Of a DNA stretch of 32,000 nucleotides, positions 7,901 through 25,517 are shown in pieces (the stretch's first letter is position 1; each line of letters begins with the position of its first letter). The notes under the pieces are model-generated. The model had not been told where the DNA came from. It made no database searches and was given only the letters and a program-made list of their open reading frames with translations. A program made the position numbers and the translations under genes. The DNA lies in the NCBI RefSeq assembly GCF_004102945.1, contig NZ_CP019384.1, positions 1,830,001 to 1,862,000 of the forward strand, read 5' to 3'. This DNA comes from Candidatus Velamenicoccus archaeovorus. Its GTDB lineage: Bacteria > Omnitrophota > Gorgyraeia > Velamenicoccales > Velamenicoccaceae.

Positions 7901-7936
7901 AAAAAATTTGAGCCCCGGGATAAACCCGAGGCTCAA
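7901..7936 (-). terminator. Intrinsic terminator (minus strand)
   Basis: Minus strand TTGAGCCTCGGG-TTTAT-CCCGGGGCTCAA (12-bp stem, one mismatch) followed by ATTTTTT. Confidence 0.5.
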
Positions 7937-8072
7937 AATTTGGCTGCCCTTCGCACTCTCGGCCAAAAAATCCGCTGAGATTTTTTGGCCTTGCGAAGGA
8001 CGCCAAATTTTTACAGAGTAAAAATTTGGCTGCCCCTATTGGACGAGTTTCGCAACTGGCTGCTCCAGCCAG
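7935..8072. repeat. Nested and alternative hairpins built on a repeated 15-mer AAAATTTGGCTGCCC
   Basis: The exact 15-mer occurs at 7935-7949 and 8021-8035. A long hairpin spans 7935-8011: outer arms 7935-7955 and 7992-8011, inner 11-bp stem 7961-7971 with 7980-7990. A competing perfect 13-bp hairpin pairs 8002-8014 with 8018-8030. A further 7-bp hairpin lies at 8056-8072. Confidence 0.6.
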
Positions 8073-8088
8073 AATATTCTTCTGTGTT

Positions 8089-9102
8089 CTAAGTTATCGA
8101 GCCATCCCAAGAGGCTACCCCAAGAAAATCCATTTGCTTTGGCTCAAAAGTTAGCCCCCTACAACTAACCTTTTTCCCTATGTTATCAGCAACTTGCTGC
8201 GATTGATCAAATACTTTAACTTTAATTGGCCGAATATACTGGCCTTCCTCCAGATGAGTAGTCCTATTGCTTGATATGCCCATCCTAATAGTGAGCTCGG
8301 CGAAGAAGTCTAATTCGGGGAAAGAATAACCTATTATATTAATTTCATCTGCCTTCTTTAATTCTTCGAAGGCTTTAGACCAAAGATCATGAATCCCCTC
8401 AAAAACTTTAAAGTAAGTGGGTGGAACAATGAAGGGAATTGCGTTTGTTTGTAACTCAAACTGTTCGATGGTATCTCTCAATCCTCGTAACGCACAATAA
8501 TATATACGACCCTTGCTAATATCGTCATTTTGCATTTGTTTATAAAAATCGCCTCTCGGCCTTAAATGTGGAGGGAAGAAAAACCAATTAACGGAGCCAT
8601 GCAACTTATAAATCGTTAATTCTCTGCCAGAATATCCTTGTGTATTCCTATACTGCCAACCGATGCCTAGCTCGTCCAACACTGATTCTAAGAGACAGTC
8701 CCAGTTAAATGTAAAAATTAGATCTTGAGCAGGATTCAATCTTGCAACAAATGAATTATAAAAATCCGTTCTCTGCTTATTTTCAACTTTTTCATTAAGA
8801 TAGAAGGCAAGAATCAATAACCAGCCTTTCCTAACAAAGGAATATTGTTCTACCAGTATTCCTTCTTTTAAACCGGCGTCTAACAAACTAATGAATTTTT
8901 CAAAATTAGTCTCTGGTTCTCCAGATGGATAAAGCATCGCATCCACGACGGCATATTCTTTTTCAAATTCTTGAAGGCATGGCAAATTTCTGTCTCTTAA
9001 ATCCTCACAGTAAAATCTTCTTAATTCTGCGAAGAGATTGCTGATAGCAGGCAGACCTGCCGGGACAGAAAATCCAGCTCCTAACATAAATATCCTTTTC
9101 AT
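8089..9102 (-). CDS. Stand-alone SIR2-like (SIR2_2 family) protein
   Basis: 337 aa. Motifs FMLGAGFSVPAGLP, IFTFNWDCLL, YKLHGSVNWFF and IIGYSFPELD match the order of SIR2_2 motifs. RBS GAGGAAAGAG. Confidence 0.85.
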   Translation of the reverse strand: MKRIFMLGAGFSVPAGLPAISNLFAELRRFYCEDLRDRNLPCLQEFEKEYAVVDAMLYPSGEPETNFEKFISLLDAGLKEGILVEQYSFVRKGWLLILAFYLNEKVENKQRTDFYNSFVARLNPAQDLIFTFNWDCLLESVLDELGIGWQYRNTQGYSGRELTIYKLHGSVNWFFFPPHLRPRGDFYKQMQNDDISKGRIYYCALRGLRDTIEQFELQTNAIPFIVPPTYFKVFEGIHDLWSKAFEELKKADEINIIGYSFPELDFFAELTIRMGISSNRTTHLEEGQYIRPIKVKVFDQSQQVADNIGKKVSCRGLTFEPKQMDFLGVASWDGSIT

Positions 9103-9119
9103 CTCTTTCCTCAGAACAA

Positions 9120-9152
9120 AACTCTCTGTAATTTATTAAATCACAGAGAGTT
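9120..9152. promoter_or_regulatory. Inverted repeat AACTCTCTGT-N13-ACAGAGAGTT in divergent intergenic region
   Basis: Perfect 10-bp arms read directly. It lies between the divergent starts at 9102 (-) and 9213 (+). Confidence 0.35.
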
Positions 9153-9212
9153 AGATAAATAAAACTGCCCGAACTGGACGCCAGACGAACTTCACAACTC
9201 CAAGTGATACAT

Positions 9213-9596
9213 ATGGTTGTGAGAATTTACACTCGCAGGAGCAAGAAACAATTAATCCGTTTTGGCGATCCTTTGCCTGAGAAACCTCAGCGGGCAAAGC
9301 GAATTTATCAAAATGTTATCTACGAAGGCCTCAAACTTCAAGCCTTCATTAATAACGGTACTTCCAGAATAACTTGGGCACAAACCCGTAAAGAGTTAAA
9401 AATTTCAGAATCCAAGTTAGCACACTTATTGAAAATAATCAATCAGTTACCGGCCGATTTCGTCGAAAACATGAGATCATGCGACAATCCGGAAATCCTA
9501 AAAATCTTCACCGGTCGAAGACTATTGCAAATCTCTCGCCTGAAAACCGAGAAAGAACGACGAAAAGAAATCGATCGTCTATTACCGAGAATTTAG
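9213..9596 (+). CDS. Hypothetical small protein with possible ParB/KorB-like HTH
   Basis: The ORF-track start at 9204 is GTG; the first ATG is at 9213. The segment ISESKLAHLLKIINQLPADFVENM resembles the HTH region of ParB-type proteins. No clear RBS, so weak support. Confidence 0.45.
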   Translation: MVVRIYTRRSKKQLIRFGDPLPEKPQRAKRIYQNVIYEGLKLQAFINNGTSRITWAQTRKELKISESKLAHLLKIINQLPADFVENMRSCDNPEILKIFTGRRLLQISRLKTEKERRKEIDRLLPRI

Positions 9597-9614
9597 ATAT
9601 CTTTGCCCTTTATA

Positions 9615-10649
9615 TTATTGAATATTATCTATCTCTTTTTCTAAAGCACGGTATTTGTCTCTAACATCTTCGCCTAAGTAGAAATCGAGCATATCCTTCT
9701 TACTTAATTTTCCATCTTTAAGAAACTTGGTTAAATATGCCTGATTGAATTCCATAAGCATCATACTTCTTTCTAACTGTTTCAAAATCTCTTTATTGTT
9801 TGCTATATTCGCCTCTACAAGTCTTTTAACGTTCAAGATATCATTAATGTCCTTGATAATGCGATTGATAATCATAGAAAGAAATTTCGTATCCAATTCC
9901 ACGCCTTTGGCATTCAACGCAATATCCCGAGCCAACATATATGCGATCGCAAGGTTCGAATAGTCACCGGACTGAGAATTGATCACTGCAACGAAACCAA
10001 TACCCTTAATATAACCAACATTTTCATATGCTTTCAGAATGCTATTATCAATTAACGATATATCAAAAACAATTATGCCAACCTTAGAGTCCCTGTTAAC
10101 TTGGGCTTCTAATAACTGACTCCAAGCTGTGTCCATCTTTTTTGTAAAAATATCCTTGGACTCAATATCCCCAAGCCTTATACTCTTATCAAATTTGCAT
10201 TCAATGGCTATCCTTAAACTTGGGTCCCCGTTTAGCTCACAAATAATATCTCCTGTTTTATTCTTTGGCAAAACACCAGTAGCATTTCCAATCAAAACGG
10301 CTTTATCGTTAATTCTTCTTGACGTAAAGTAGTTATTTAAGAATTCCGCTACTTGGTCTTCTGCAACAAACCCCTTTACGGTTGTCTTATAAAATAACTC
10401 CTTTTTCATTTCAAAAATCATTTTCAAACTCTCTAGCTCAGTCCCAAGTTCATTCGTCGTCTTGGCAAGAAAAGCAGAAATCCTATCTTCCATTAATGCT
10501 AATACCCCTATATAAATTGCACGGATGAGCTTTTCGTCCCTCTCATCTACTGGGATATTATTAAAAAAATTAAAAACTACGTTATTCGATAACTCAAAAT
10601 CTTTTATCTCTATCCTGCCTAGCTTCTGATTTAAATTAATAACAGCCAT
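9615..10649 (-). CDS. PD-(D/E)xK nuclease-fold protein, RmuC/DUF2130-like architecture
   Basis: The central motif KGFVAEDQVAEFL...KTGDIICEL...RIAIECKFDKS follows the pattern G-x-x-x-E, D, ExK, and is flanked by helical or coiled-coil regions. The ORF-track start at 10655 is GTG. ATG 10649 has AAGGAG 5 nt upstream and is used here. Confidence 0.6.
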   Translation of the reverse strand: MAVINLNQKLGRIEIKDFELSNNVVFNFFNNIPVDERDEKLIRAIYIGVLALMEDRISAFLAKTTNELGTELESLKMIFEMKKELFYKTTVKGFVAEDQVAEFLNNYFTSRRINDKAVLIGNATGVLPKNKTGDIICELNGDPSLRIAIECKFDKSIRLGDIESKDIFTKKMDTAWSQLLEAQVNRDSKVGIIVFDISLIDNSILKAYENVGYIKGIGFVAVINSQSGDYSNLAIAYMLARDIALNAKGVELDTKFLSMIINRIIKDINDILNVKRLVEANIANNKEILKQLERSMMLMEFNQAYLTKFLKDGKLSKKDMLDFYLGEDVRDKYRALEKEIDNIQ

Positions 10650-10660
10650 CGCCACTCCTT

Positions 10661-10873
10661 CTATCGAATTTTATTCTGCCGATATCGCTTATAAATATTT
10701 TGGTGTGCATACGTCCCATGAGAGTCGGCCGCCATCAAGCCATCATATTCATGTTGAGGAACATCAAAATATTCATAGGCTGAGCCGTCCTTAAATTCAA
10801 TATACAACACTGCTGAGTCGGGATCATATCCTATAGCCGCCAAATTAGAAGAATTAACTGGTATCATTTCCAT
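10661..10873 (-). CDS. KTSC domain-containing protein
   Basis: 70 aa. VNSSNLAAIGYDPDSAVLYIEFKDGSAYEYFDVPQHEYDGLMAADSHGTYAHQNI matches the KTSC (PF13619) pattern. The start is 3 nt after the HerA stop. Confidence 0.8.
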   Translation of the reverse strand: MEMIPVNSSNLAAIGYDPDSAVLYIEFKDGSAYEYFDVPQHEYDGLMAADSHGTYAHQNIYKRYRQNKIR

Positions 10874-10876
10874 TTT

Positions 10877-12667
10877 TTACCCCTTTTTCAGATGTTTTTG
10901 TTCTCTCCAAGCCTTAACAATATTCTTGTAGTGCTCTGCTTTTACAGTAAACTTCTTGCGCCAACCTTCAACCAGCTTAGGATCATTGCTGCTCGGCCGA
11001 GGTTCCACAAGTTCAATTCTAACCCTCGAAGGGATATTTATTGCCTCGCCAACAATTATCGCTTCACCAATCCTTAAGGATGGCAAAAGCTCCATTAAAC
11101 TATTCATATTATTAGGTGAGGCAGATTGAACGTTATTTTTGTCACTACTATTGGTAAGCCTCAATGCAACGAATGTGCCTACTTGAGCAAGAATTGTCTC
11201 CGAAATTTCTGACGGCCTTTGAGTTACAACCATTGCTCCGACGCCAAATTTCCGCCCTTCCTTATATATCTTTTCAACAGAGCGCCTTGCATACCCATAT
11301 ATATGCGAACTGCTTTCATTCTTTGGTAAATAAGAATGCGCCTCTTCGAAAACCATCAATATTGCTCGGTTCCTTCCGGTATAATCTTCATGTCTACCCC
11401 AATACATTGAATCAAAAATTAACCGTGTTATTAAACCTACCGTTATATCGATTAACTCGAAAGGCACCTCATTTAAATCCAATATGGTAAGACGCTGGGC
11501 ATGATCAATCCAGTCACGGAGAAGTTGATCTATGTCATGCTTGCTTGTAGTATCATAAAAATCTCCGGGATTAAACATAAAGTCAAAGCGCGTATCTTTC
11601 AGACGAGAGAGTATTTTCATTTCGTAAGCATACATCGTCTGTTCTTTAGATTTAAAAGGCGCGACGGCTCCCATAGAATAAGGTTTAAATCTTGCCGGTA
11701 TTAATTTTTGTGGATCTCCCTCTGCCTCCAACTCTTCTTTATCTTTTGTCTGCTTGTCGGCTGTAGCCTCAGAATAGGTTGCATTAATTTCCCTGTTAAA
11801 GTCATACCACATCTTCCTTATGTCGAATGGGATGGGTGAATCCGCGGTAACAAAATCCACATTGACATTACCCGCCTTCAACCTGGATGCATTATCTTTC
11901 TTTAGTTTAACAACTGCTTCGCGCAATTTCTTGTCCTCTGGTTTTTCGCTACCGGCTTGTCTTCCAACCAAGAAAAACGAAAGCTCATCAAAAGACATTG
12001 CCCAAAAAGGAATATACAAAGGACTTTGGTCGTCATTTATCTTGAATACCTTAGCCTCTGTTCCAAATGCAGAAGAATACTCTCCATGAGTATCAACCAA
12101 AACCACCCTCGAACCTGGGTAGTCATTCAAAATGCGCTTTAGAATATGTGCAGTCGTATTTGATTTACCACTACCGGTAGAGCCGAGAATAGCGCTGTGT
12201 CGCAAGATAAAATTATGCAGATCCAAATAAACAGGAAGATTCTCAGAAGAAGAGTGTTTCCCTATCTCAATCGTCCCTGCGCTATGATCACCGTAAATAA
12301 TTCTAAGGTCATCTTCTGTTACAATATGGACTTCATCATTAATCGTGGGATATGTCCCTACTCCCTTTTTAAATACATCTCCTCCCAATTGTTCACCAAT
12401 AAGCTGAACCTGCAAAAATCTGGAACCATAATCCGGCTCGTACTTGTTGACTTCAATTAAGGAAGGGGTATTGCTGACAGAAGAAACTATCCCAAACAAC
12501 GTCAGTCCCCCTACCGGAATTTTTACAAATGTCCCAATTTGTCCAAGCTTATATAGCCGCCCATTAATAATCGGCGTTGCTGAAGGGATATCTCGAGAAA
12601 TCTCAACTTCAATGCTTGAACTATTAACATTAATTACTTTGCCTAAATATGTAATTTCATTTATCAT
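10877..12667 (-). CDS. herA: HerA-like (DUF87/FtsK-HerA superfamily) ATPase of SIR2-HerA systems
   Basis: 596 aa. N-terminal HAS-barrel-like region (GKVINVNSSSIEVEI...GQIGTFVKIP...GIV). Walker A ILGSTGSGKSNT, Walker B ILMVFEEAHSYLP. Its start overlaps the SIR2 stop by 11 nt. Confidence 0.9.
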   Translation of the reverse strand: MINEITYLGKVINVNSSSIEVEISRDIPSATPIINGRLYKLGQIGTFVKIPVGGLTLFGIVSSVSNTPSLIEVNKYEPDYGSRFLQVQLIGEQLGGDVFKKGVGTYPTINDEVHIVTEDDLRIIYGDHSAGTIEIGKHSSSENLPVYLDLHNFILRHSAILGSTGSGKSNTTAHILKRILNDYPGSRVVLVDTHGEYSSAFGTEAKVFKINDDQSPLYIPFWAMSFDELSFFLVGRQAGSEKPEDKKLREAVVKLKKDNASRLKAGNVNVDFVTADSPIPFDIRKMWYDFNREINATYSEATADKQTKDKEELEAEGDPQKLIPARFKPYSMGAVAPFKSKEQTMYAYEMKILSRLKDTRFDFMFNPGDFYDTTSKHDIDQLLRDWIDHAQRLTILDLNEVPFELIDITVGLITRLIFDSMYWGRHEDYTGRNRAILMVFEEAHSYLPKNESSSHIYGYARRSVEKIYKEGRKFGVGAMVVTQRPSEISETILAQVGTFVALRLTNSSDKNNVQSASPNNMNSLMELLPSLRIGEAIIVGEAINIPSRVRIELVEPRPSSNDPKLVEGWRKKFTVKAEHYKNIVKAWREQKHLKKG

Positions 12668-13859
12668 TTGATTCCTTCACAACCTCTTCGATTTTTTCCT
12701 GCTTACCAGATATCTCCATTAAAAACCTGACCATTTCTTTGAAATCTCCTATTTTTAGACGATTGCCGCCAACATCCCAACAAGCATCTAACAAATGGTC
12801 TGTCTTATTTTTCTTCCACTCGCCCAAGAAACCTCTAATTATAGCTTTTCGGGGTCCGATTGCTGTAAAGTTCAGAAAAGTCCCGAGTTCGCTTATTTTC
12901 GCCAAATCGTCGTCGGAAAAGAAAAATCCTATAATATGAAGTCTGTTATTTTGTTTCAAACTATCAATAATTACGGCATTTATATGCTCATCAGAAAAAG
13001 AATATCCGTTTATAACAAAAATTCCCTCTCCATCCTGTAGAAAAGTTCTAAGCCGATCAAAATAAGCGATGAAAGGTTGTTTTCTAGAAGTCTCGTACTT
13101 TTCTTTTGACGGATAAATTACCAACTCATTTTCATTGTTAGATTTTTTCGATTCAATCCCAAGTCGAACAACTTTGTTGGGTTTCCCTTTAGCATTTTTC
13201 TTCCAGAACCAATTGATCGAGCCATGTAGCTTCCAAAATCTTATCCAAGAAACCGGTGGAATATCGTATGTATTCTTGCTCTCAAGACTCTCCGGAAAAA
13301 AGAACGGCTGATAAGCACCGACAAATCCATCAAAATAGGGGATATGCAAACTCTCTAGCGCCTTCTCAACAACCAGGTCATAATTGGTAGTAAAAACTTC
13401 TTTGGCATAATCTCTACTCAACCAATTTAACCATGTCACAAATTTCTTTGTATGCGATAAATCAACACTTCTCTCCTCTTCGCCTATAATCTCGTAAATA
13501 CGATTGCATATTTCCATATCCAAATCGAGAGCATCTTTTCCGCTTACCTTCTCAAAATTTCTGTCCGGGCTATCATTTGCAAGCTGTCGAATCAAACGTA
13601 CTTGATCAAGAATCTGCTCAATCGTTAATGGATCGTCACCTTCTTTTACGCTTAATCCAGTTTCGACATTTTTTAAGATATTCTTTTGTTTCTCTCCCAG
13701 CTTCTCTCGAACTTTTTTTGTTAGCCCAGCGAGATCGGATATATTTAATGCCTTCGAAGTCCCGGCCCCCAACAAGAATCCAATTCTTTTAACATAAGAA
13801 AGCTGATTTCTTACTTCGCAAATTTCTTTTTGTGGGTCATAAAATATTTCATTTGCCAT
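12657..13859 (-). CDS. SIR2-like NADase-family protein (SIR2-HerA system partner)
   Basis: 400 aa. Motifs GFLLGAGTSKA, VFTTNYDLVVEKAL, WKLHGSINWFW and INGYSFSDEHIN. RBS GAGGTGA. Confidence 0.9.
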   Translation of the reverse strand: MANEIFYDPQKEICEVRNQLSYVKRIGFLLGAGTSKALNISDLAGLTKKVREKLGEKQKNILKNVETGLSVKEGDDPLTIEQILDQVRLIRQLANDSPDRNFEKVSGKDALDLDMEICNRIYEIIGEEERSVDLSHTKKFVTWLNWLSRDYAKEVFTTNYDLVVEKALESLHIPYFDGFVGAYQPFFFPESLESKNTYDIPPVSWIRFWKLHGSINWFWKKNAKGKPNKVVRLGIESKKSNNENELVIYPSKEKYETSRKQPFIAYFDRLRTFLQDGEGIFVINGYSFSDEHINAVIIDSLKQNNRLHIIGFFFSDDDLAKISELGTFLNFTAIGPRKAIIRGFLGEWKKNKTDHLLDACWDVGGNRLKIGDFKEMVRFLMEISGKQEKIEEVVKESNDK

Positions 13860-13886
13860 ATTTCACCTCTTGTAGCCCCCCCAGAA

Positions 13887-14876
13887 CTATTTAAAAATCA
13901 AGGCCGATTGCTTGCTTCTTATTTCTACCTCTTTTTCGCTTAACAAGGCACCATAGAAACCCTGTATTTCTGAATCACTTTTATTATTTTCAAGAAACCT
14001 GAAAGACGATGCTGCCAAATAATCTTTTTCTTTCTCAAAAGCCAGCCATTTTCTGCCATGCCCTTCTGCAGCTTCTCCGGTGGTATTTGAACCCGCGAAT
14101 ATATCCAACACAACATCACCCGGATCGGTAAGAAACTTAATAAAAAATTCTGGCAACTGCCTTGGAAAACGAGCTGGATGTCCTTGTATATTCGCTATCT
14201 TACAAAACCGCAAATATTTTGAATTGCTTTCCGAATTCGATATCTGCAAAAGATTGGGAGGAATGGCGCCACCATTGCCATTCCCGTTGCCAAACTCTTT
14301 AGAAATATCATGTCCGGATGGCCTCTTCTTTGGCGTATAGAATTTCTCGCTATTCTTCAATAATTGTTTCATCCTCTCCGAGTAAGGAGTTAATACCTTC
14401 TTGATATCAGCCTTGGGATATTCTGACTTCGAAAACCACCATATTGTATTAACAGCGTCTTTCGCCCTTATCTTTCGCTTATTAACCCATTCAATCGGGG
14501 ACGGCAATTTCGAAGGATTAAACCAAAAAAACTCCTCTGCCAAAAAGAACCCAAGATCCTCGCAGAATTTAATCAATATTTTGTAGTTATAAAGCGACCG
14601 GGTCGGCCTTCCTTTTTCGTAAGCACCCCCAAGATCAAGAACAAAACTGCCATCATTCTTTATTACTCTCTTGATTTTTTTTGCAAAAACAGCTAACCAA
14701 TCGACATAATCTTCTTGCGATTTATTACCGTATTCTTTTTGCCTCTGCAACGCAAACGGCGGCGATGTTATGACAAGGTTGACAGAATTATCAGAAAGAC
14801 AATCAAGCAATTCTAAAGAATCGCCAACATAAGCCTTCCCATATTGCGTTGTGTACAATGGAGATGGTAATTTCAT
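13887..14876 (-). CDS. Beta-class N4-cytosine/N6-adenine DNA methyltransferase (SPPF type, M.PvuII-like)
   Basis: 329 aa. Catalytic motif IV VITSPPFAL precedes the SAM motif I VLDIFAGSNTTGEAA, which is the beta-class order. SPPF is typical of m4C enzymes. Long stretches (FWFNPSKLPSPIEWVNKRKIR, PPNLLQISNSESNS, HPARFP) match my recollection of the M.PvuII family; this needs REBASE confirmation. Confidence 0.88.
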   Translation of the reverse strand: MKLPSPLYTTQYGKAYVGDSLELLDCLSDNSVNLVITSPPFALQRQKEYGNKSQEDYVDWLAVFAKKIKRVIKNDGSFVLDLGGAYEKGRPTRSLYNYKILIKFCEDLGFFLAEEFFWFNPSKLPSPIEWVNKRKIRAKDAVNTIWWFSKSEYPKADIKKVLTPYSERMKQLLKNSEKFYTPKKRPSGHDISKEFGNGNGNGGAIPPNLLQISNSESNSKYLRFCKIANIQGHPARFPRQLPEFFIKFLTDPGDVVLDIFAGSNTTGEAAEGHGRKWLAFEKEKDYLAASSFRFLENNKSDSEIQGFYGALLSEKEVEIRSKQSALIFK

Positions 14877-14897
14877 CGACCCAGCAAACTCCTTTTA

Positions 14898-16364
14898 TTA
14901 ATAAATATCCAAATCGCTCACCCAACTCGAAAGAATTTTCCACAGCACTGTTACAGCAAAATACACCTCTTTATCTTTCTGCTTCAATTCTTCTATTTGC
15001 GTAATAAACTTCTCCTGCTTTTGGGAACCAATTATCCAAGCAACCCACTTCCGTGAATTTTCATCGTTCATTACAGAAGATAAGTCTTTGACGGAGAAGT
15101 TACCGCTTTTGCTCAATGCCCAAGAAATACCCGCTCGCACATCTTCGCTGCCCTTTGGGAATAATCCAATAATTTCCTTGCTATAAATCTCTGCCAACCT
15201 GAAAAGCGACCGAGCAGATTCAGATCTAACATCGATGTTTATATCGTCAAATACCGTAACTAACGCTTGTAGCGCTTCTTTATTCTTGAGTTCCCCCAAC
15301 GCCCAAGCTGCTCCCGCTCTAATTTCTGGATGCTGCTCTTTATCTAATAAAACACGGATGAGCAATTCAGCAGAATAACTACTATTAATTTCCCCTAGAA
15401 TAATAACACCTTCCAGCCTATTTTCTAAATAAGTATCCCTCAAAACCTCTTTAAAGAAATCTATGCTTTCTTTCTGCCCAAGCTTCAAAATACTTGATGC
15501 CGCCTCCAAACGAATATAAATATGATCTTTGGAGTCTCCCATTTTCTCCAATAAAGATTTAATCACTTGCAGATCTTTGGGGAAATATGAAAGTGCTTTA
15601 GCCGCTGCATATCTTTCACTTAATGAAGTACTTTTTAACATTTTCTGATAATCTGAAGCCCCTCTCCCGCCTAAGCACTTAAAATCTTGAATAACAGGAA
15701 CAACAGATGCGATGATCTGATCTTGTTTAACAACGCCATTAACAGTTACAATAGGTTTTATAGTGATATTTTTCTTTTTTAAGCTCAGACTTATTGTTCT
15801 GTTATCTTCAGTACGTTTAAACTTTATTCTGTTATTTATCTCTACCACTGTACCATCGCAACTAGCAACAGCACATGGCCATGAAATCCTTGTTTCAAAT
15901 CCTTCTTCAACACCTTTCGGTCTCTCGGTAATAACTTTTTTGTCACGAAAAACCTTCCTCAAATAATTGACTTGAATATATTGCACAAGATCCGAAGCCT
16001 TCCAATCTGTAGGATCTTCTCCTGCTTTTTTACAGCTTACCAAGGCGATAAAATCTTCATCATTCAAACCAAAATCCCACCCGCGTTCCGGGCTAGCTAT
16101 TGAATGTGACATGGTTATTTGCAACTTGGTTTTTGCTCTTGATTCCACCCGTTTTCCACATTTCACACAAAGGATATCAGGAACACGAACACGCTTAATT
16201 TTAATCCCCTTCCAAATCTTAAAACTCATTGACCCACGTTCCAACTCTATAGGGGCATGGGTTTGCCGTTTTAAGTCATCAAATACTTTCTTAGTCCCTG
16301 TTGCTCCAATAGAAATTTTTTCTAGAAAGCTTACATCGGTTTTGAATGACTGTCTATTTGCCAT
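14898..16364 (-). CDS. Putative PD-(D/E)xK-like N-terminal domain fused to C-terminal HEAT (PBS-lyase type) repeats
   Basis: 488 aa. The N-terminus has ELERG...RVPDILCVKCGKRVESRAKTK, an Hjc/restriction-endonuclease-like E, PD, E-x-(R/K) pattern. The C-terminal ~230 aa carries repeated HEAT-like units (EIRAGAAWALGELKNKEALQALVTVFDD, IDVRSESARSLFRL, DVRAGISWALSKSG). Confidence 0.6.
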   Translation of the reverse strand: MANRQSFKTDVSFLEKISIGATGTKKVFDDLKRQTHAPIELERGSMSFKIWKGIKIKRVRVPDILCVKCGKRVESRAKTKLQITMSHSIASPERGWDFGLNDEDFIALVSCKKAGEDPTDWKASDLVQYIQVNYLRKVFRDKKVITERPKGVEEGFETRISWPCAVASCDGTVVEINNRIKFKRTEDNRTISLSLKKKNITIKPIVTVNGVVKQDQIIASVVPVIQDFKCLGGRGASDYQKMLKSTSLSERYAAAKALSYFPKDLQVIKSLLEKMGDSKDHIYIRLEAASSILKLGQKESIDFFKEVLRDTYLENRLEGVIILGEINSSYSAELLIRVLLDKEQHPEIRAGAAWALGELKNKEALQALVTVFDDINIDVRSESARSLFRLAEIYSKEIIGLFPKGSEDVRAGISWALSKSGNFSVKDLSSVMNDENSRKWVAWIIGSQKQEKFITQIEELKQKDKEVYFAVTVLWKILSSWVSDLDIY

Positions 16365-16380
16365 AGAAACCCTTCATGTT

Positions 16381-16563
16381 TTAATTTTTATTTCTCCATT
16401 GTTTCCGATCCTTTTCAATCAGGTCCCGGATAATTGATATAATGGACGCGCTTTTATTTTGTTTTTGTAACTCAAGAGCTTTTTCTTTCAGGAAGAAATA
16501 CTGCTCCTCGCTAATTTCAATAGTCGTCTTTTTCATGTTGGTTTTGCCTATTTGCCGGTTCAT
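16381..16563 (-). CDS. Small ribbon-helix-helix (CopG/Arc-like) protein, putative
   Basis: 60 aa. KKTTIEISEEQYFFLKEKALE...ASIISIIRDLIEK fits a beta-strand plus two helices. An alternative start is M10 (16536). It ends 16 nt before the HEAT-fusion gene. Confidence 0.45.
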   Translation of the reverse strand: MNRQIGKTNMKKTTIEISEEQYFFLKEKALELQKQNKSASIISIIRDLIEKDRKQWRNKN

Positions 16564-16566
16564 CTA

Positions 16567-16617
16567 TTTTGTGCTCCAATCGCTATATCCCTTTATTTAT
16601 AGCAATATAGCACAAAA
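16567..16617. promoter_or_regulatory. Imperfect inverted repeat upstream of the RHH gene
   Basis: TTTTGTGC (16567-16574) and GCTATAT (16582-16588) pair with the contiguous ATATAGCACAAAA (16605-16617). The left arm carries a 7-nt insertion. Confidence 0.3.
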
Positions 16618-16651
16618 AGGCTGGATTGAGAAGGAAAAACTAAAGCAACCG

Positions 16652-17401
16652 CTAAGATAGTTTTTTGGCAATATCTCTAATGCCGGTGTCCGGATGCATA
16701 AGAAGTTTTTCTCTATCGTAGTCGATAAAATCAGGGTGGAGGGATATGCGGTATTGCTTTGATCCGTTATTCTCAATAAATTTCTGACCGTCTTTGTCCA
16801 GCAAGCTACCTTCTAAAGCCGTTCGGAGGTTACTATAAATCTGAAATTTTTCAACATCAGCAATTATCGTGTCGGAACCCAATCTATGCCTATGAACCCA
16901 GCCGTCCCTTTTCTTTTTCAATTCCAACACCAAACGGAGGAATAACTTGAATACCGAATCGCCGAGTTTTATTTTATGATTATTTACCTCGACTGCATTG
17001 CTTCGTCTCATCGGTATAGTACCCGGGATATAAACCTTGTCGTAGCATTTGTACTCAAAATTTTTGTAATCCTTATTCTGCTTTTCCGTCAGCTCTCTAA
17101 TGACAAGATCCGCCCCTATATTCGGCCTCAGCATTCCGGAAATAATCTCGCCGAGTAGTTTGCAAATTTGATTATCAAACGTCTTTCTGTAAATGCTCTC
17201 TTTCTTCATATGTTTTTTTAGGTCGAGGGCATCGCTGCGTGTTATCGGTGTAAAAACAACAAGGATGCTATTATCTTTATAAATATACTTTAAGGTAGAT
17301 AGCTTTAACAACCTGCCGTTGCCGATATTAAGAACGAAAACCAAGCCCGCTCTTCTACCGTTCCCTTTCTTGTTCGCTATATAAAAATATCCCTTTTTCA
17401 T
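16652..17401 (-). CDS. Hypothetical protein with possible C-terminal OmpR/PhoB-type winged-helix domain
   Basis: 249 aa, RBS AAGGATAGGGG. The C-terminal segment IKLGDSVFKLFLRLVLELKKKRDGWVHRHRL...IYSNLRTALEG...GSKQYRISL follows the Trans_reg_C pattern. The N-terminal ~130 aa is unrecognised. Confidence 0.45.
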   Translation of the reverse strand: MKKGYFYIANKKGNGRRAGLVFVLNIGNGRLLKLSTLKYIYKDNSILVVFTPITRSDALDLKKHMKKESIYRKTFDNQICKLLGEIISGMLRPNIGADLVIRELTEKQNKDYKNFEYKCYDKVYIPGTIPMRRSNAVEVNNHKIKLGDSVFKLFLRLVLELKKKRDGWVHRHRLGSDTIIADVEKFQIYSNLRTALEGSLLDKDGQKFIENNGSKQYRISLHPDFIDYDREKLLMHPDTGIRDIAKKLS

Positions 17402-17423
17402 CCCCTATCCTTGTCCTGCGGGT

Positions 17424-18629
17424 TTATTTAGACTCTTCCATGCCCGGAGGTCTTTTCCTCCATGGATAGCCTCCCGATGCCTCCTTAAATCCAAGATCAT
17501 AAAGCTCTCGCATTTCCGCGGGATCAAAAAGCTCTTTTGCTTTTGACACATGCGTTGCAGGAATATAGGCAAGATTAAAATCTCCCTTTCCATATTTAGT
17601 AAAAACGTACAACTGGTAAAGATCGCCTATGCCCTGAGCATTTATTATCGTGTCAACCGCACGCTCAGCAATTGCTGAAAGCCTATCCGGAACCTCTTTA
17701 TAGATAGGATCAACATAGCCGTTTCTTATTACATAGATTGCGTATTTAAGCTTAGATGCATCCATCCCCTTCTCTTTAAGAGCCTTGTCGAACCCCTGCA
17801 AAACATCGTGCAGAAAAAATACCTGCCTAGTTATGCCGCCGTCGACGTGCATCTCGTCGTACGTCTTATCATTGGCTTCTACATTCAGATATACCGGCGG
17901 GAAAGCAATCGGGATAGATGCCGACGCCAATATGACCTTGCGAAACAGCTTTAAAGCTTTATCATCTCCTATAGACGCGATTTTTCCCATATCCCAGATA
18001 ACCAGCCGCTGCGCATCTAAATTAGTAGTTCCGATGTAAAGCCTGCACCCTTTGGCATACTCAGCAGCTATTTGCTTCATCAATTCTGCATCAAAGTATT
18101 TCTCAATCAGACGCTCAAGCGGGCGGGTATTTGCAAAAGAATTAATAAACGGGATTCGTATTCGGACGATATCTCTCGTAGAATATTTTGTATAAAACTC
18201 TTTTAACTTGTAATCATATTCATTCCCGAGAAAGGCGATTGGCGCAATTATCGCTCCCGTGCTAATCCCTGTTACTACTTTAAAAACCGGACGCACCCCC
18301 GATTCACTCCAACCACTTAATAAACCGGCCCCGTATGCGCCCTCAGCAGCTCCTCCTGAAATAGCCAGCGCATATAAAGTCTGGCTATTATTAAAGTCAA
18401 AAAAAGAACTCTGTTCTTTTTTCTCTTGCTCTAATAATTTGATAAAATCTTCTTTGAAAGAATCACTAGGCATACCGCTGAATGCCCTGACATCCTGCAT
18501 GCCGAAAACCCGCGCGCTGCTTAATAAATCCGGAGGGACGGCATGCCGAACGCTTGCGCAACCGGAAATAAAAAAAGCGATCATGCTGAACAAGCATAAC
18601 CGCCTTCTTGTTCCTACCCACTTATACAT
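17424..18629 (-). CDS. Patatin-like phospholipase, predicted lipoprotein
   Basis: 401 aa. Lipobox FFISGC; oxyanion region ISGGAAEGAYGAG; GxSxG as GISTGA; catalytic Asp in HVDGGI. Confidence 0.85.
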   Translation of the reverse strand: MYKWVGTRRRLCLFSMIAFFISGCASVRHAVPPDLLSSARVFGMQDVRAFSGMPSDSFKEDFIKLLEQEKKEQSSFFDFNNSQTLYALAISGGAAEGAYGAGLLSGWSESGVRPVFKVVTGISTGAIIAPIAFLGNEYDYKLKEFYTKYSTRDIVRIRIPFINSFANTRPLERLIEKYFDAELMKQIAAEYAKGCRLYIGTTNLDAQRLVIWDMGKIASIGDDKALKLFRKVILASASIPIAFPPVYLNVEANDKTYDEMHVDGGITRQVFFLHDVLQGFDKALKEKGMDASKLKYAIYVIRNGYVDPIYKEVPDRLSAIAERAVDTIINAQGIGDLYQLYVFTKYGKGDFNLAYIPATHVSKAKELFDPAEMRELYDLGFKEASGGYPWRKRPPGMEESK

Positions 18630-19089
18630 GAGAACTCCCCATAGATTCTAAAGAATCAACGAGTATCGAGATTCCTCTTTCCATTATTTTTTTATCCTTT
18701 TCTTTTAGACCGTTAACGAGCGTCTCAAGAAACCGTTTTCTATGCTTTTCTAATTTTGCCAAATAATATCTCCCTTTGTCGGTAAGCGCGACAGTAACCT
18801 TCCTACGATCTTTCTCAGTCCGATGACGAACAACCAATTTGCGTTCAACAAGTCGATCGACAAGATTGGTCGCGAATGCACCGCTAACAGAGAGTTCTTT
18901 TTTTATTTTGTTCATCTCGCTCGGCTTGCCGCTACTTAAGAAATTTAATATTTGAAATTCTAAAAAACTTATCTTCTGAGATAAAAAATAACGTTTAGTA
19001 TGGACATGTAAACTCCTCATAAGCCTCTGAAGCAACTCGGAAAGCTTTAAATAATACGGCCTTTCAAACACAAAACTCACCTTTTTCAA
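18622..19089 (-). CDS. MarR family transcriptional regulator
   Basis: Winged-HTH core LEFQILNFLSSGKPSEMNKIKKELSVSGAFATNLVDRLVERKLVVRHRTEKDRRKVTVALTDKGR. The ORF-track start is TTG, so the true start is uncertain. It overlaps both neighbouring genes. Confidence 0.85.
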   Translation of the reverse strand: MKKVSFVFERPYYLKLSELLQRLMRSLHVHTKRYFLSQKISFLEFQILNFLSSGKPSEMNKIKKELSVSGAFATNLVDRLVERKLVVRHRTEKDRRKVTVALTDKGRYYLAKLEKHRKRFLETLVNGLKEKDKKIMERGISILVDSLESMGSSHV

Positions 19090-19630
19090 TAAGAGTTATG
19101 CCTACTGCAACCACCTCGGAATCGTATAGTGATCCGCTGTTTTGTTGAATTTCCTGCAAAGCATCCTCAATATTTAATGTTGGCCGATACACCTGTGGAG
19201 AAACCATCGTATCTACCACATCGGCAACTGAAATTATTTTTGTAACAGGATTAATCTCCTCGGCATGTAAGCCGAAAGGATATCCTGAACCATTCAATCT
19301 TTCATGGTGCTGAAGCGCAACCTCCGCTGCCATAGATTCGGACTTTATGTCTTTTAAAAGAGAATAGCCCAACTCCGGATGCTTTTTCATGATCTCAAAT
19401 TCATCATTATTCAGAGGGCCGCACTTATTAAGGATCTCCACCGGTATTTGAATCTTTCCAATATCATGAACGACTGCTGCAAAATGAATATGCTTAATAT
19501 CTGCGTCGGGGTGGCCAATTTTTTGAGCAATAGCACACGCAAGCCGAGCAACCCGACTTCCATGAGCATAAACCGCCTCATGTTCGCTTAACATTTTTAC
19601 GATTGAAAACAATGTGTCAAAATTTTTCAT
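19064..19630 (-). CDS. Stand-alone HD-GYP domain protein (putative c-di-GMP phosphodiesterase)
   Basis: 188 aa. Motifs HGSRVA, VVHDIGK and HHERLNGSGYPFGL. Confidence 0.85.
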   Translation of the reverse strand: MKNFDTLFSIVKMLSEHEAVYAHGSRVARLACAIAQKIGHPDADIKHIHFAAVVHDIGKIQIPVEILNKCGPLNNDEFEIMKKHPELGYSLLKDIKSESMAAEVALQHHERLNGSGYPFGLHAEEINPVTKIISVADVVDTMVSPQVYRPTLNIEDALQEIQQNSGSLYDSEVVAVGITLIEKGEFCV

Positions 19631-19634
19631 GCAT

Positions 19635-22600
19635 TTAATGTTTTATAAACCGCCTCTCAAAACGCTCCAGATACCAGAAGACTACCGGCACTAGAATAAA
19701 TGTAAAGATGATCGAAGCGAGCAATCCGCCGATCATCACCGCGCCCATAGACTGTTTAATTTTGCTTAAACTCCACAACTGCGGTAGAACGCCTAAAATA
19801 ATGGCAAACGAAGTCATAATAATCGCGCGGAATTTAGCTGAAGCGCCCTGCCAAAGCGCATCCTTAATCGCCAATCCCTCTTTCATCTTAACTAAGGTCT
19901 GATCCAGAAGCAGGATCGCGTTATTCACTACCATACCTACCAACATAACCATACCCATCATCGAAGCCACATTCATGCTCTGGTTAAGATAAAACAGCCC
20001 CAAGACCATCCCGGCGACGGAAGCAAGCACTGTAGTCATGACCGCCAAAGGATAAGCAATTAGTGAATTCATGATCGCGCACAACAGCATAAAGGTTAGG
20101 ATGATCGCCAAAAGAAACGCCCTGCCCAATTCAACATTTGTTTCTTCCATATACTCCGAATATCCCGAGTATTTATAGTTATAGCCGGAGGGAAAGTTAA
20201 TTGCCTTGAACTGTTTATCCAACTTCTTGCTGACGATAACCATGGAGCTCTTGCCCAGATACCCGTCAATTCGTATGATCCTGTTGCGATCGCGACGCCA
20301 GATGGTGGGAACAGCCTTATCGATTTTCAATTCTCCTAATTCATTGATAGGGATTAACCCTTTGCGCGAAAGAATTGATATTTCTTTAATATCGTCGAAA
20401 TTCCGAGCATAAACATCATCCATCTCCACGTTGACTTTATATTCTTCACCTTTTTCTTTGTAAATATTGGAATCCTCTCCGTAAATGGAGTATCGCATTA
20501 CTGCGCCCACGCTAGCTGCGTTGAGTCCGAACTCATTAAGTTTTTCCTCATTAGGAACCAAGCTCATCTGCTTCTTAGGGCTTTTATATGAAAGAACTAC
20601 GCTCTGAAAATCGCCGCTTTTATTCATGATATCTTTCATCTGTCTGGCCAGATCAACCATAACCGTGTAATCCGTGCCGTAAAGGTCTATAGCTACATCA
20701 CCTTCAGACATCGAGCTTATACCTTGCCGTACGCAATACGCTTCTACATCCGGCATCTTTGAGATGAAAACGATCAGATCGTCAATAATCTGCATATCGC
20801 TGCGTTTACGCTCGGTTGAAGGGATTAAATCCAGGGTAACCTTGGCGTTCTCTACTCCATTATTCCCAATATTAGACAAGTAAGCTCGTTTCTCTGGTAT
20901 CGTATCCAAGAAAGCTTCAATATGCTTGACCGCCTCTTCTGTACGTTCGACGGTTGAGCCTTGAGGAAGAGAAAGATTGATAATGACCTTATCTTCGTCG
21001 GACTTAGGCTGAAAATCATTTTCCACATAAGAGAAAAGTAAAAATGAACCGATCAGCGCCAAACAACAAAAAGCAATAGTCGAGCGCGGAAAACGGAACA
21101 TAAGCTCAAATATATGCTTATACTGCTTTTTAAGAAATTCCGTTAGTTTGTCCACGGAAATCGGAATCATTCTTATTCTAGAAATAACCATTTGCATCAG
21201 TCCGGGCCGGAAAGGTTTCTCAGTTTTTTGAGGTTGAAGCATTGCCGCGCACAACATTGGAGTCAATGAGAATGAGGCCAGCAATGAAAAGCAAGTAGCA
21301 TAAACCACTGTCAGACCGAATGATTTCATCATCAGCCCAACCATTCCACCCATCATAGCAATCGGCATGAATACAACAAGATTGGTGCCGGTAGAAGCAA
21401 TGACGGGAATTAAAACTTCCTTAGTCCCGTCTATCGCTGCCTTTTCCGGATTGTCGTGGCGGCTCAAATGTACCATCACGTTCTCTAAAATTACTAAAGC
21501 ATTGGATATAAGTGTTCCGATTACCGTAGCGATGGCAAGAAGGGTCATCATGTTAATGGAAAAACCCGACATCCACATAGGAAATAGCGTAGAGATAATC
21601 GAGGTAGGAATAATGATTGCAGAAATAAACGACATATCCCAACGCCCCAGAAACAGCAACAATAGGATTATGGTTAAAACGATTCCTATAAATATGTTCC
21701 GTTCGGTATCCAATGTTTCATTCGCGATAAAAGTAGTGGTGTCGGTAGCAATTTCCAGATGCATTCCCTGAGGTAGACTTTTCTGGAATTCCGCTAACCT
21801 CTTACGCATTTGATGAGAAATGAATACAGCGTTACCGTCGGAAGCTTTATTGACGGAAAGGCCAACTACAGGTTTACCGTTATAGCGAGCGACTGTAGAG
21901 ATTTTTTTATAGCTATCCTCGACTGCTGCAATATCCTTCAGGTGAAATTCACCGCCGTCGGATGAAACTAGAAGGGTATCGGCAATCTCTTTTACGCTTG
22001 TGAATTCTCCGGTAAAGCGCACGCTAAGAGCATCGTATCCCTTTTCAATATCCCCCGCAGGCACATTTTTATTGCGGGCCATGAGCGCCGCAATCACTTC
22101 GTTGATACTAATATAATGCTGCTTCATAAGCATGGGGTCCAAACGGACATTAATCTGCCGTTTCTCCCCTCCATATACGTCGACCTTGGCTACGCCACGT
22201 ATGGATGAAAATTTGGTCTTTAAGGTTTTATCCGCATATTCGTATACTTCGCGCAGATCACCGGAATCACTGCTTAAAACCATGTCCAACACCGGCTCAA
22301 TTAAAGGATCATATTTCTCTATTACCGGTTTTTCTATTGCATCAGGCAGGTCGTTAAGAATGGCCTCAACCTTGTCCTTAACTTCTATAGATTTGACGTT
22401 GACGTCTGCGGAAAGTAAGAATTCTACGAATATGTATCCGAAACTATCGTAAGACTGGCTTTTTATCTTCTTAATCTCGGAAATCTCAGAAATAGCGTCT
22501 TCAATCTTTTTGACTACCAGCGTCTCCACCTCCAAAGGATTCGCCCCCGGATAAGTCACGGAAACCGTCACAATCGGAAAATCAATCTTTGGGGTCTTCT

Positions 22601-22697
22601 CAATCATCAGATTGGAATAGCTGAAAAACCCCAAGACCACGAATACCAACACAAACATGACCGTGGTAATCTTATGTTTAACAAAAAATTCTATCAT
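19635..22697 (-). CDS. RND efflux transporter permease (AcrB/AcrD/AcrF family)
   Basis: 1020 aa. It has the 12-TM layout with two large periplasmic loops and family-typical N- and C-termini. ATGA overlap with the adaptor gene. Confidence 0.95.
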   Translation of the reverse strand: MIEFFVKHKITTVMFVLVFVVLGFFSYSNLMIEKTPKIDFPIVTVSVTYPGANPLEVETLVVKKIEDAISEISEIKKIKSQSYDSFGYIFVEFLLSADVNVKSIEVKDKVEAILNDLPDAIEKPVIEKYDPLIEPVLDMVLSSDSGDLREVYEYADKTLKTKFSSIRGVAKVDVYGGEKRQINVRLDPMLMKQHYISINEVIAALMARNKNVPAGDIEKGYDALSVRFTGEFTSVKEIADTLLVSSDGGEFHLKDIAAVEDSYKKISTVARYNGKPVVGLSVNKASDGNAVFISHQMRKRLAEFQKSLPQGMHLEIATDTTTFIANETLDTERNIFIGIVLTIILLLLFLGRWDMSFISAIIIPTSIISTLFPMWMSGFSINMMTLLAIATVIGTLISNALVILENVMVHLSRHDNPEKAAIDGTKEVLIPVIASTGTNLVVFMPIAMMGGMVGLMMKSFGLTVVYATCFSLLASFSLTPMLCAAMLQPQKTEKPFRPGLMQMVISRIRMIPISVDKLTEFLKKQYKHIFELMFRFPRSTIAFCCLALIGSFLLFSYVENDFQPKSDEDKVIINLSLPQGSTVERTEEAVKHIEAFLDTIPEKRAYLSNIGNNGVENAKVTLDLIPSTERKRSDMQIIDDLIVFISKMPDVEAYCVRQGISSMSEGDVAIDLYGTDYTVMVDLARQMKDIMNKSGDFQSVVLSYKSPKKQMSLVPNEEKLNEFGLNAASVGAVMRYSIYGEDSNIYKEKGEEYKVNVEMDDVYARNFDDIKEISILSRKGLIPINELGELKIDKAVPTIWRRDRNRIIRIDGYLGKSSMVIVSKKLDKQFKAINFPSGYNYKYSGYSEYMEETNVELGRAFLLAIILTFMLLCAIMNSLIAYPLAVMTTVLASVAGMVLGLFYLNQSMNVASMMGMVMLVGMVVNNAILLLDQTLVKMKEGLAIKDALWQGASAKFRAIIMTSFAIILGVLPQLWSLSKIKQSMGAVMIGGLLASIIFTFILVPVVFWYLERFERRFIKH

Positions 22698-23386
22698 TGA
22701 ATTTGTTCCTTTTTATCTGTTTCTCCGGCGTCTACCACCAGTAGCCGGTCATTATCCTCAAGCATACTCTGTCCGCTGAATATTACTTTATCGCCGGATT
22801 GCAATCCTTCGGAAATTATCGCGCCGTAGCCGTTGCGTAATCGAATAACCACTTTGCGTTTTTTGGCAAGACCGTTCTCATCCTTCCAAATAAAATATTC
22901 ATCTCCGGCAATATCCAGCACTTCATTGGGAACGGCTAATACATTATGTAGCGTCGAAGTATGAGCGCAAACCACAAACGCAACGCTCGGATCCCGAGAC
23001 TTATCAAACTCTACCTCTACCGGGAACATACCAGCGTCCATGTCTAGTTCCGCACCTATGCTTTTTAATCGAGCGCTAACAACGAATCTATCCTCCGGAT
23101 CGTATATCTCTTGTCCTTCCTGAAGCGCATTTTTAACTTCACCTGTAACAAACCCACGGGCAACCCGCCCGTCAACGATCCTGACCGTAAACTGAGCGTA
23201 AACGGGGACATCTCCGGCTTTAATCACCCGAACCTCAACCGGCTTTCCCGCCTTCTTCCATTCCCCATAGAAACTGACAATTGTCTTACCGCGTGCTGCC
23301 TTGACCGCGTGAATACGCAGTGGAACGGAAGCTAAACTAAGGATAATGATTATTAAATATATTGTTTTTCGCTTAAAGTTTTTCAT
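22694..23386 (-). CDS. Short RND periplasmic adaptor (MFP-like) subunit
   Basis: 230 aa with an N-terminal signal or anchor. Beta-rich C-terminal region (VLAVPNEVL...YFIWKDENG...KRKVVIRLRNGYGAIISEGLQSGDKVI). Positioned between the TolC and RND genes. Confidence 0.7.
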   Translation of the reverse strand: MKNFKRKTIYLIIIILSLASVPLRIHAVKAARGKTIVSFYGEWKKAGKPVEVRVIKAGDVPVYAQFTVRIVDGRVARGFVTGEVKNALQEGQEIYDPEDRFVVSARLKSIGAELDMDAGMFPVEVEFDKSRDPSVAFVVCAHTSTLHNVLAVPNEVLDIAGDEYFIWKDENGLAKKRKVVIRLRNGYGAIISEGLQSGDKVIFSGQSMLEDNDRLLVVDAGETDKKEQIQ

Positions 23387-24707: not shown

Positions 24708-24775
24708 TATCACACCGTCACCCTAATATTAATCACGAAACCCTCTATTACGCTGCTCGTGAACATTCTATCAAT

Positions 24776-24828
24776 TTGTGAACAACTGTTCACAAATAAA
24801 GCATACCATTCATTTAGTGGCTTGTCAA
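24776..24828 (-). promoter_or_regulatory. Promoter plus palindromic TetR-type operator of the efflux operon
   Basis: Minus strand TTGACA (24828-24823), 17 nt, TATGCT (24805-24800). This is followed by the perfect palindrome TTGTGAACAACTGTTCACAA (24776-24795). Confidence 0.6.
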
Positions 24829-24876
24829 GGTAAATGATTTTGTAAAGAGTTCTCTGAGGAAATACTAAAAGGCAGG

Positions 24877-25488: not shown

Positions 25489-25517
25489 TTATCCCCCTCA
25501 CGAACACTGTTTAATTA

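Follow-up and report, generated by a model that had tools for sequence, protein, structure and literature searches.

Seven tightly packed, co-directional genes in Candidatus Velamenicoccus archaeovorus probably form a defense island of three units around SIR2-HerA

SIR2-HerA is the anti-phage system of Paenibacillus sp. 453MF that was reportedly described by Garb et al. in 2022. The cloned operon of this strain defends on its own, and NAD+ depletion and phage protection have been shown for this prototype (PMC11472057). The published papers treat the system as two genes and, judging from the NAR 2024 text, leave the KTSC fold unnamed; amino acids (aa) 576 to 696 of the prototype HerA are termed a "C-terminal arm domain," and the unique C-terminal extension of the protein is reported to stabilize the split-spiral hexamer (PMC11472057). 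Furthermore, HerA-KTSC-endoDNase neighborhoods were mentioned by the Aravind group as "unpublished observations," in which an endoDNase takes the place of the sirtuin, the two being mutually exclusive (PMC9503650). The subject of this study is a string of seven genes at positions 9615 to 16563 of a 32,000-nucleotide stretch of Candidatus Velamenicoccus archaeovorus (Omnitrophota; contig NZ_CP019384.1, positions 1,830,001 to 1,862,000), which is referred to as the window in its full length. The string includes a SIR2-HerA pair, and a first-pass annotation had proposed that all seven genes form one composite system. The genes of the string, in the direction of transcription and with coordinates from the list of open reading frames (ORFs), and the convergent gene in the downstream flank, which lies outside all modules, are the following:

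16381-16563, minus strand, ribbon-helix-helix (RHH)-like gene, 60 aa
14898-16364, minus strand, gene of a HEAT-repeat protein, 488 aa
13887-14876, minus strand, predicted DNA methyltransferase (MTase) gene, 329 aa
12657-13859, minus strand, SIR2 gene, 400 aa
10877-12667, minus strand, HerA gene, 596 aa
10661-10873, minus strand, KTSC gene, 70 aa
9615-10655, minus strand, gene of the nuclease-like protein P7, 346 aa
9204-9596, plus strand, convergent 130-aa gene (p130)

Rereading of the ORFs returned the seven minus-strand genes with the lengths and coordinates noted earlier, and the claimed spacing was obtained again, i.e., an 11-nt overlap of SIR2 and HerA and gaps of 16, 21, 27, 3, and 5 nt. 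The motifs were likewise found in the translations: GAGTS, TTNYD, KLHGS, and GYSFSD in SIR2; GSTGSGKS (Walker A) and FEEAH (Walker B) in HerA; SPPF in the MTase; and GD...IECK in P7. The earlier family labels held in part. SIR2, HerA, KTSC, MTase, and HEAT were matched by hidden Markov models (HMMs) of Pfam and PADLOC, whereas the RHH-like protein and P7 stayed unmatched; the terms RHH, nuclease-like for the HEAT protein N terminus, and PD-(D/E)xK for P7 come from residue patterns, with a weak PDDEXK_15 signal in P7 homologs.

In common with the Paenibacillus system, the window locus has a SIR2 gene with N/D/H-type motifs overlapping a HerA gene with Walker A and B motifs; both loci share the PADLOC models PDLC04093 and PDLC04105, and both have a KTSC at the C-terminal end of the HerA module. 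They differ in that KTSC forms residues 633 to 695 of the 696-aa HerA chain in Paenibacillus but a separate 70-aa gene in the window, and in that the window locus adds P7 as a fourth gene. The neighborhoods noted by the Aravind group resemble it in combining a HerA-like ATPase, a KTSC-domain gene, and an endonuclease gene; unlike these, the window has SIR2 and the nuclease-like P7 together, and P7 is also found behind non-HerA ATPases (PMC9503650). Septu (PtuA/PtuB), PARIS (AriA/AriB), and Lamassu (LmuB/LmuA) similarly have an ABC/SMC- or HerA-type ATPase beside a nuclease effector in one operon, but P7 matches no PADLOC model of these systems, and one P7 clade pairs with at least seven ATPase families without co-evolving with any of them. 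The upstream genes are closest to the PvuII restriction-modification (R-M) system, sharing an MTase that is 62% identical end to end and has the SPPF N4-cytosine motif, adjoining a candidate nuclease gene and a small DNA-binding gene; they differ in the partner, a 488-aa HEAT-repeat protein in the window, and in that the three genes are collinear in the window. C.PvuII is a helix-turn-helix (HTH) C protein, whereas the small gene of the window looks RHH-like. Full-text literature searches on KTSC with HerA or defense and on the PDC names turned up neither P7 nor the KTSC...P7 arrangement. The four-gene block SIR2-HerA-KTSC-P7 is a recurrent variant of the known system.

The seven-gene string is most likely a defense island of three units, namely an R-M-like unit, SIR2-HerA-KTSC, and P7, which are co-directional and closely packed by chance. 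This partition was derived from comparison with about 100 related loci. For P7, the 80 best genome matches to the window protein served as the context set, in which ORFs were called and clustered; they belong mostly to Bacteroidota, plus Ignavibacteria/Melioribacteraceae and the Omnitrophota member Zapsychrus. Homologs of the MTase, the HEAT protein, and the RHH-like protein were found in none of these 80 P7 loci. Conversely, a HEAT homolog was followed directly by an MTase gene in all eight contexts read, and SIR2-HerA was absent from five of the seven contexts other than the window. The expected recurrence of HEAT and MTase beside SIR2-HerA in unrelated genomes was thus not borne out, the only further case being the close relatives L106 and L107. 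For the downstream genes the expectation was confirmed, as KTSC and P7 do recur beside SIR2-HerA in unrelated genomes, in the same order and on the same strand.

The separation of the two parts is directly visible in L106 and L107, which are syntenic relatives of the window with 75% nucleotide identity. They retain the RHH-like gene (79% protein identity), the HEAT gene (81%), and the MTase gene (86%), followed by another SIR2 (354 aa) and another HerA (553 aa), each about 30% identical to its counterpart in the window. This SIR2-HerA block lacks KTSC and P7 and is followed by a convergent homolog of p130 (70%). In agreement, blastn of the window against L106/L107 aligned positions 16536-13908 and 9575-9304 and nothing between them. 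Because homology is limited to both flanks, SIR2-HerA-KTSC-P7 is one exchangeable 4.3-kb cassette between the MTase gene and the convergent 130-aa gene in this lineage. The 27-nt MTase/SIR2 junction is one boundary of this cassette, and the 130-aa gene marks its end. Tight spacing had been taken as a sign of a single system; this junction is as tight as the others, and a relative that keeps RHH-HEAT-MTase and the flank while swapping SIR2-HerA-KTSC-P7 shows that such spacing does not mark one system. Moreover, clearly unrelated systems are packed equally tightly in Bacteroidota islands.

SIR2 matched PDLC04093 (1.9e-117) and SIR2_2 (3e-16), and HerA matched PDLC04105 (8e-159) and DUF87 (3e-38) and aligned to residues 10 to 604 of the 696-aa chain of PDB entry 8wiv (E value of 3.4e-129). 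Across 26 to 35 loci, the pairwise identities of SIR2 and HerA were correlated with an r of 0.98. SIR2 is thus predicted to be the NADase-type effector of the system, and HerA is assigned to the type of Paenibacillus sp. 453MF, except that its chain ends before the KTSC domain. By homology to the prototype, the two proteins would form the published supercomplex with KTSC supplied in trans, and they would deplete NAD+ on infection, as established for the prototype. A search of viral contigs with HerA as the query found nothing.

The KTSC gene, which had been counted as an addition to the two-gene system, is predicted to be a split-off C-terminal domain of the HerA of that system. The protein matched PF13619 (7.5e-25; 86.9 bits versus a gathering cutoff of 25), the KTSC protein of PDB entry 7x8c (E value of 2e-13), and residues 633 to 695 of the HerA chain in 8wiv (E value of 2.8e-12). 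The assignment as a split domain is based on this match to the same 8wiv chain and on three further observations. First, naturally fused HerA-KTSC proteins of 693 to 699 aa occur in L050, L067, and L084. Second, KTSC identity tracks that of HerA (r of 0.91) and SIR2 (r of 0.93) in 26 loci. Third, among the listed and cross-checked plasmid HerA homologs with at least about 35% identity, a KTSC gene follows even where P7 is lacking; on a Citrobacter IncR plasmid, for example, SIR2-HerA-KTSC is followed by a convergent chrA. KTSC was also seen in the family f8, proteins of about 615 aa (L014, L018, L033, L047, L054, L063, and L064) that combine HATPase_c_4, Fic-like_C, and a C-terminal KTSC, match the PNTD region of pAgo-associated proteins in PADLOC, and are often located 5′ of KTSC...P7 arrays. 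Given f8 and the HerA fusions, KTSC is joined to at least two unrelated proteins.

The first three genes (16563-13887) appear to constitute an independent R-M-like unit. Over 316 aa, including the central region between SPPF and FxGxG, the MTase shares 62% identity with M.PvuII (PDB entry 1boo; E value of 2.5e-140); it also matches the PADLOC model MTase_II PDLC03323 (2.3e-158) and N6_N4_Mtase (1.2e-42), and carries the motifs SPPF and FAGSNTTG. It is therefore predicted to be an N4-cytosine DNA methyltransferase closely homologous to M.PvuII, and its site is probably CAGCTG. This hexamer is mildly depleted, with 2 sites seen versus 5.7 expected; avoidance was dropped as evidence, the difference being too weak. 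The HEAT protein matched HEAT_2 of Pfam (1.7e-21) and belongs to a family of approximately 488-aa proteins with 1561 homologs. Its AlphaFold2 (AF2) model (pLDDT of 89, pTM of 0.83) shows three parts, i.e., an N-terminal domain of a helix plus strands (approximately residues 1 to 140), a β-rich part (approximately 145 to 225), and the HEAT repeats (approximately 236 to 480). Residues E15, K16, E42, R43, P62, D63, C66, C69, E74, R76, K78, and H87 are invariant across 34 sequences of 54 to 81% identity. The N-terminal half also contains invariant cysteines at residues 66, 69, 111, and 230, together with H36 and H87, with a CxxC placed between D63 and E74; these cysteines and histidines suggest a structural metal site. 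Residues 155 to 220 bear a faint resemblance, within noise, to a segment of the RNA polymerase β subunit.

The HEAT and MTase proteins also diverge in parallel. Their identities to the window proteins (HEAT first, MTase second) were 81 and 86% in L106/L107 and 71 and 77%, 69 and 77%, 61 and 72%, 55 and 69%, 51 and 68%, and 41 and 65% in the other contexts. The remaining neighbors of these pairs differ from one context to another and include BrxC/D-like genes, a DruA/DUF87 set, an integrase with an MmeI-like enzyme, and a DEAD/MZB helicase set. At L089 (1802-5932), the HEAT-MTase pair is directly preceded by genes for a DruA-domain protein, a 382-aa protein, and a DUF87/HerA-family ATPase; this ATPase is a second HerA-family neighbor of HEAT-MTase and is distant from the window HerA (E value of 7e-6). 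The 60-aa protein gave no match in Pfam, NCBIfam, or PADLOC even at E values up to 10, and RHH is a plausible label for it, read from its size and strand-helix-helix pattern. A homolog lies directly 5′ of the HEAT gene in L106/L107, a 59-aa HTH_17 gene replaces it in L108/L109, and it is absent in L089 and L091. Non-orthologous replacement of the small DNA-binding gene would fit an R-M controller, and the 60-aa gene is considered a putative controller of the unit. In the mechanism that we propose, the MTase would mark self DNA with N4-methylcytosine, probably at CAGCTG, the HEAT protein as the candidate restriction component would cut unmarked DNA, a role suggested by its constant association with the MTase and by its invariant residues of the D...ExRxK type, and the RHH-like protein would act as the controller.

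P7 was not matched by any model of Pfam, PADLOC, NCBIfam, or PHROG. The protein is identical to NCBI protein BU251_08735, and its start is ambiguous (10649-10655): a GTG start gives 346 aa and the 5-nt gap, whereas an ATG two codons further on gives the 344-aa NCBI form and an 11-nt gap to KTSC. Searches gave 2367 homologs and, separately, 273 clusters at 50% identity. Residues E99, D136, E152, and K154 do not vary among 43 sequences of 23 to 87% identity, and P7 is accordingly best described as a candidate nuclease-like protein with a PD-(D/E)xK motif set. PDDEXK_15 was found weakly in homologs (5.9e-05 in one of them, below the gathering score), with window P7 unmatched, and a SAP domain is present at the C terminus of distant relatives. 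The AF2 model, in which P7 has long helical arms, is of low confidence (pLDDT of 59.6); the order of its secondary-structure elements fits the α-β-β-β-α-β core of PD-(D/E)xK nucleases. Restriction enzymes were among the weak Foldseek matches, the best of which had a nonsignificant E value of 0.046, and a P7 profile matched only coiled coils in the PDB. An apparent KTSC-P7 fusion (P0292) looks like a frameshift artifact and was not used. A phage origin of P7 was considered and rejected, with no P7 in INPHARED phages and two in IMG/VR.

About 38 of 82 nonredundant P7 loci have the order SIR2-HerA-KTSC-P7 on one strand, with gaps of approximately -34 to +24 nt. The carriers are Bacteroidota, Ignavibacteria/Melioribacteraceae, and the other Omnitrophota member, and the same four genes were also found on an alphaproteobacterial plasmid (from Paracoccus) and an IMG/VR contig. 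At the remaining loci, P7 lies directly 3′ of members of two OLD families, PDC-S06 (AAA_13), PDC-S46, or LmuB-like SMC proteins, the last group including one with an additional 344-aa gene. P7 is thus not tuned to HerA: no fewer than six further ATPase families stand in front of it, and its sequence shows no specialization to them. KTSC or one of two other small genes or domains, f4 (72 aa) or f5 (95 aa), is present upstream of P7 in 60 of the 67 loci with enough sequence. Both f4 and f5 are conserved small-protein families located 5′ of ATPase genes in P7 operons (L001, L008, L038, L052, and others). That f4 is a divergent KTSC is not claimed, since hhalign gave a full-length alignment at 5% probability, and a WYL-like nature of f5 was dropped after PDB and Pfam searches gave no support. 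In L013, L065, L066, L076, and L084 the modules are stacked, with a further ATPase module (f4-OLD or f4-f14-f16) separating the KTSC of SIR2-HerA from P7. The stacked locus L065 has the SIR2-HerA closest to that of the window outside Omnitrophota, with identities of 72% for HerA and 53% for SIR2.

P7 is far more conserved than the genes in front of it. Median pairwise identity was 0.80 for P7, 0.52 for KTSC, 0.43 for HerA, and 0.35 for SIR2, and pN, with synonymous sites saturated, was 0.12 for P7, 0.40 for HerA, and 0.45 for SIR2; the evolutionary rate of P7 is thus about 3.5-fold lower than that of SIR2-HerA. Its identity was 0.817 within and 0.816 between types of upstream gene. The contrast in pN at saturated synonymous sites and the indifference of P7 identity to the upstream type argue that P7 conservation reflects old purifying selection, not recent spread. 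P7 occurred on 1 of 115 plasmids carrying a HerA homolog, and its distant relatives lack a neighboring KTSC and adjoin DEAD, SNF2, or UvrD helicases or a WYL regulator.

Tentatively, and at somewhat less than even odds, we read P7 as an optional generic add-on that would be co-transcribed with the ATPase gene in front of it and would add DNA cleavage downstream of that ATPase, not as a dedicated subunit of SIR2-HerA. The main rival, which is possible but on balance unlikely, holds that P7 is an autonomous single-gene defense nuclease or a selfish nuclease with no functional tie to HerA; it would have come to lie behind SIR2-HerA-KTSC only because cassettes are shuffled in a recombination hotspot, where P7 and genes of the KTSC type serve as conserved homology anchors. 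In favor of this rival are the homology between loci beginning exactly at the P7 start codon, the independence of P7 identity from the type of upstream gene and its weak tracking of HerA (r of 0.32), the order SIR2-HerA-KTSC-f4-OLD-P7 in L013, L066, and L076, and the commonness of SIR2-HerA-KTSC without P7 on plasmids; among the distant relatives lacking KTSC and HerA, moreover, one is first in its operon and another stands beside the WYL regulator. Against autonomy, P7 in this clade is nearly always preceded, on the same strand and at a distance of a few nucleotides, by an ATPase gene, so that it seemingly lacks space for a promoter of its own, and the small genes KTSC, f4, and f5 recur upstream of it. 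Its partners are consistently NTPases (HerA, ABC/SMC-type ATPases, and helicases), distant relatives included, which suggests functional pairing, and in the single swap observed P7 was lost along with SIR2-HerA-KTSC. A further, more far-reaching and doubtful reading pairs P7 with the small proteins of the KTSC type as a universal adaptor-plus-nuclease plug-in for at least seven unrelated ATPase cores (HerA, two OLD, PDC-S06, PDC-S46, and two LmuB-like); the KTSC fold would then dock P7 onto the ATPase, and one slowly evolving effector would serve many rapidly evolving sensors.

The assignment of the HEAT protein to restriction has a rival of its own. The designation "restriction nuclease" follows from linkage, since no search assigned the N-terminal fold. 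Instead of being a nuclease, the protein could act in sensing or regulation by binding DNA or protein, with the M.PvuII-like enzyme as an orphan or epigenetic methyltransferase or as part of a nonclassical methylation-based system. HEAT repeats are unusual in restriction endonucleases, the motif is E-x-R-x-K and not the canonical ExK, no nuclease family was recovered for the protein in Pfam, PDB profile, or Foldseek searches, and CAGCTG depletion is mild. This alternative nevertheless seems improbable in view of the strict and co-varying HEAT-MTase pairing in varied defense islands, of the small RHH or HTH_17 DNA-binding genes 5′ of the HEAT gene as in R-M controllers, and of the invariant residues E15, E42, D63, E74, R76, and K78 carried on a helix plus strands in the N-terminal domain.

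Several points weigh against the division into three units or the roles given to them. The second and third units leave together in the sole swap seen, which also fits P7 as a true fourth subunit, and HEAT-MTase stands next to SIR2-HerA again in L106/L107; since these are close syntenic relatives, this adjacency counts as one event. The choice of the best 80 matches inflates P7 identity, though not its contrast with the neighbors, and the HerA-conditioned sample consists of plasmids, mostly from Proteobacteria. For P7, the poor model is joined by the lack of a significant fold match. Searches with the HEAT protein also failed to reveal a nuclease: phmmer against all PDB chains (E values up to 1) returned HEAT-repeat chains alone, with no restriction endonuclease and no relative of R.PvuII, Foldseek with the full model matched HEAT/ARM repeats alone and left the N-terminal fold without a match, and profile (PDB) and Pfam searches with the N terminus alone yielded nothing above noise. 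Concerning transcription, the promoter/terminator scan found 31 promoter-like sites versus 25.5 ± 6.3 in shuffled sequences, i.e., not beyond chance, and no terminator-like hairpin in any junction of the string; one promoter-like site (16632-16604; consensus match only) lies upstream of the 60-aa gene. The proposal that all seven genes are one integrated system, with HerA coordinating an NADase, two nucleases, and a modification module from a single transcript, could appeal to this site, to the gaps of at most 27 nt without hairpins, to the repeated precedence of RHH-HEAT-MTase over a SIR2-HerA pair in L106/L107, and to the HerA-family ATPase in L089, but it is highly improbable given the 80 P7/SIR2-HerA loci devoid of the upstream genes, the HEAT-MTase contexts devoid of SIR2-HerA, the exchange of the SIR2-HerA block independently of the R-M block, the equally tight joining of unrelated systems elsewhere, and the function of the prototype as a two-gene operon (PMC11472057).

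The string is embedded in a low-GC stretch, with a GC content of approximately 0.35 to 0.41 versus 0.51 to 0.55 in the flanks of the window. This stretch (approximately positions 8000 to 25500; 0.35 to 0.43) contains the defense genes and then, at 17.4 to 25.5 kb, patatin-like, MarR, and HD-domain genes and an RND efflux set with TetR. Scans of the window for tRNAs and Rfam families gave no match, no integrase was found in the low-GC stretch, and the direct repeats sought at the island edges included no convincing att-like pair. Adjoining the string, a second, divergent SIR2-like gene (8089-9102, minus strand; 337 aa) has its own upstream region; the protein shows the motifs GAGFS, KLHGS, and GYSFPE and weak matches to SIR2_2 (3.7e-4) and PADLOC Aga_SIR2 (2.8e-10). 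A strong terminator-like hairpin with a 13-bp GC-rich stem and a T run (7907-7937, minus strand) lies directly 3′ of this gene, and a 15-bp AT-rich hairpin (9120-9152, minus strand) lies between it and the 130-aa gene. On the other side, upstream of the RHH-like gene, a 249-aa protein without a family match is encoded at 16652-17401 (minus strand). In L050, P7 is directly followed by two tandem homologs of this protein (cluster f39), and in L026 the cluster is represented a few genes 3′ of P7; the 249-aa protein may be encoded by another defense-island gene.

Comparative genomics has split a co-directional, closely packed string at a 27-nt junction, and close packing is not equivalent to one system. 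The third element of SIR2-HerA, KTSC, is a domain in the tested prototype and a separate gene in many genomes, where two-gene annotation tools will miss it. The HEAT-repeat protein, strictly paired with M.PvuII-like MTases, is a candidate for a new family of restriction enzymes, and P7, with more than 2,300 homologs under strong purifying selection, occupies the 3′ end of many defense operons; both P7 and the HEAT-MTase pair merit further work. If P7 proves to be an autonomous nuclease, it would be a new defense candidate. If P7 and the KTSC-type proteins form a plug-in pair, the "two-gene" SIR2-HerA and several "single-gene" systems would share an overlooked output arm, and if P7 is an effector shared among ATPases, the view of modularity in bacterial immunity would change.

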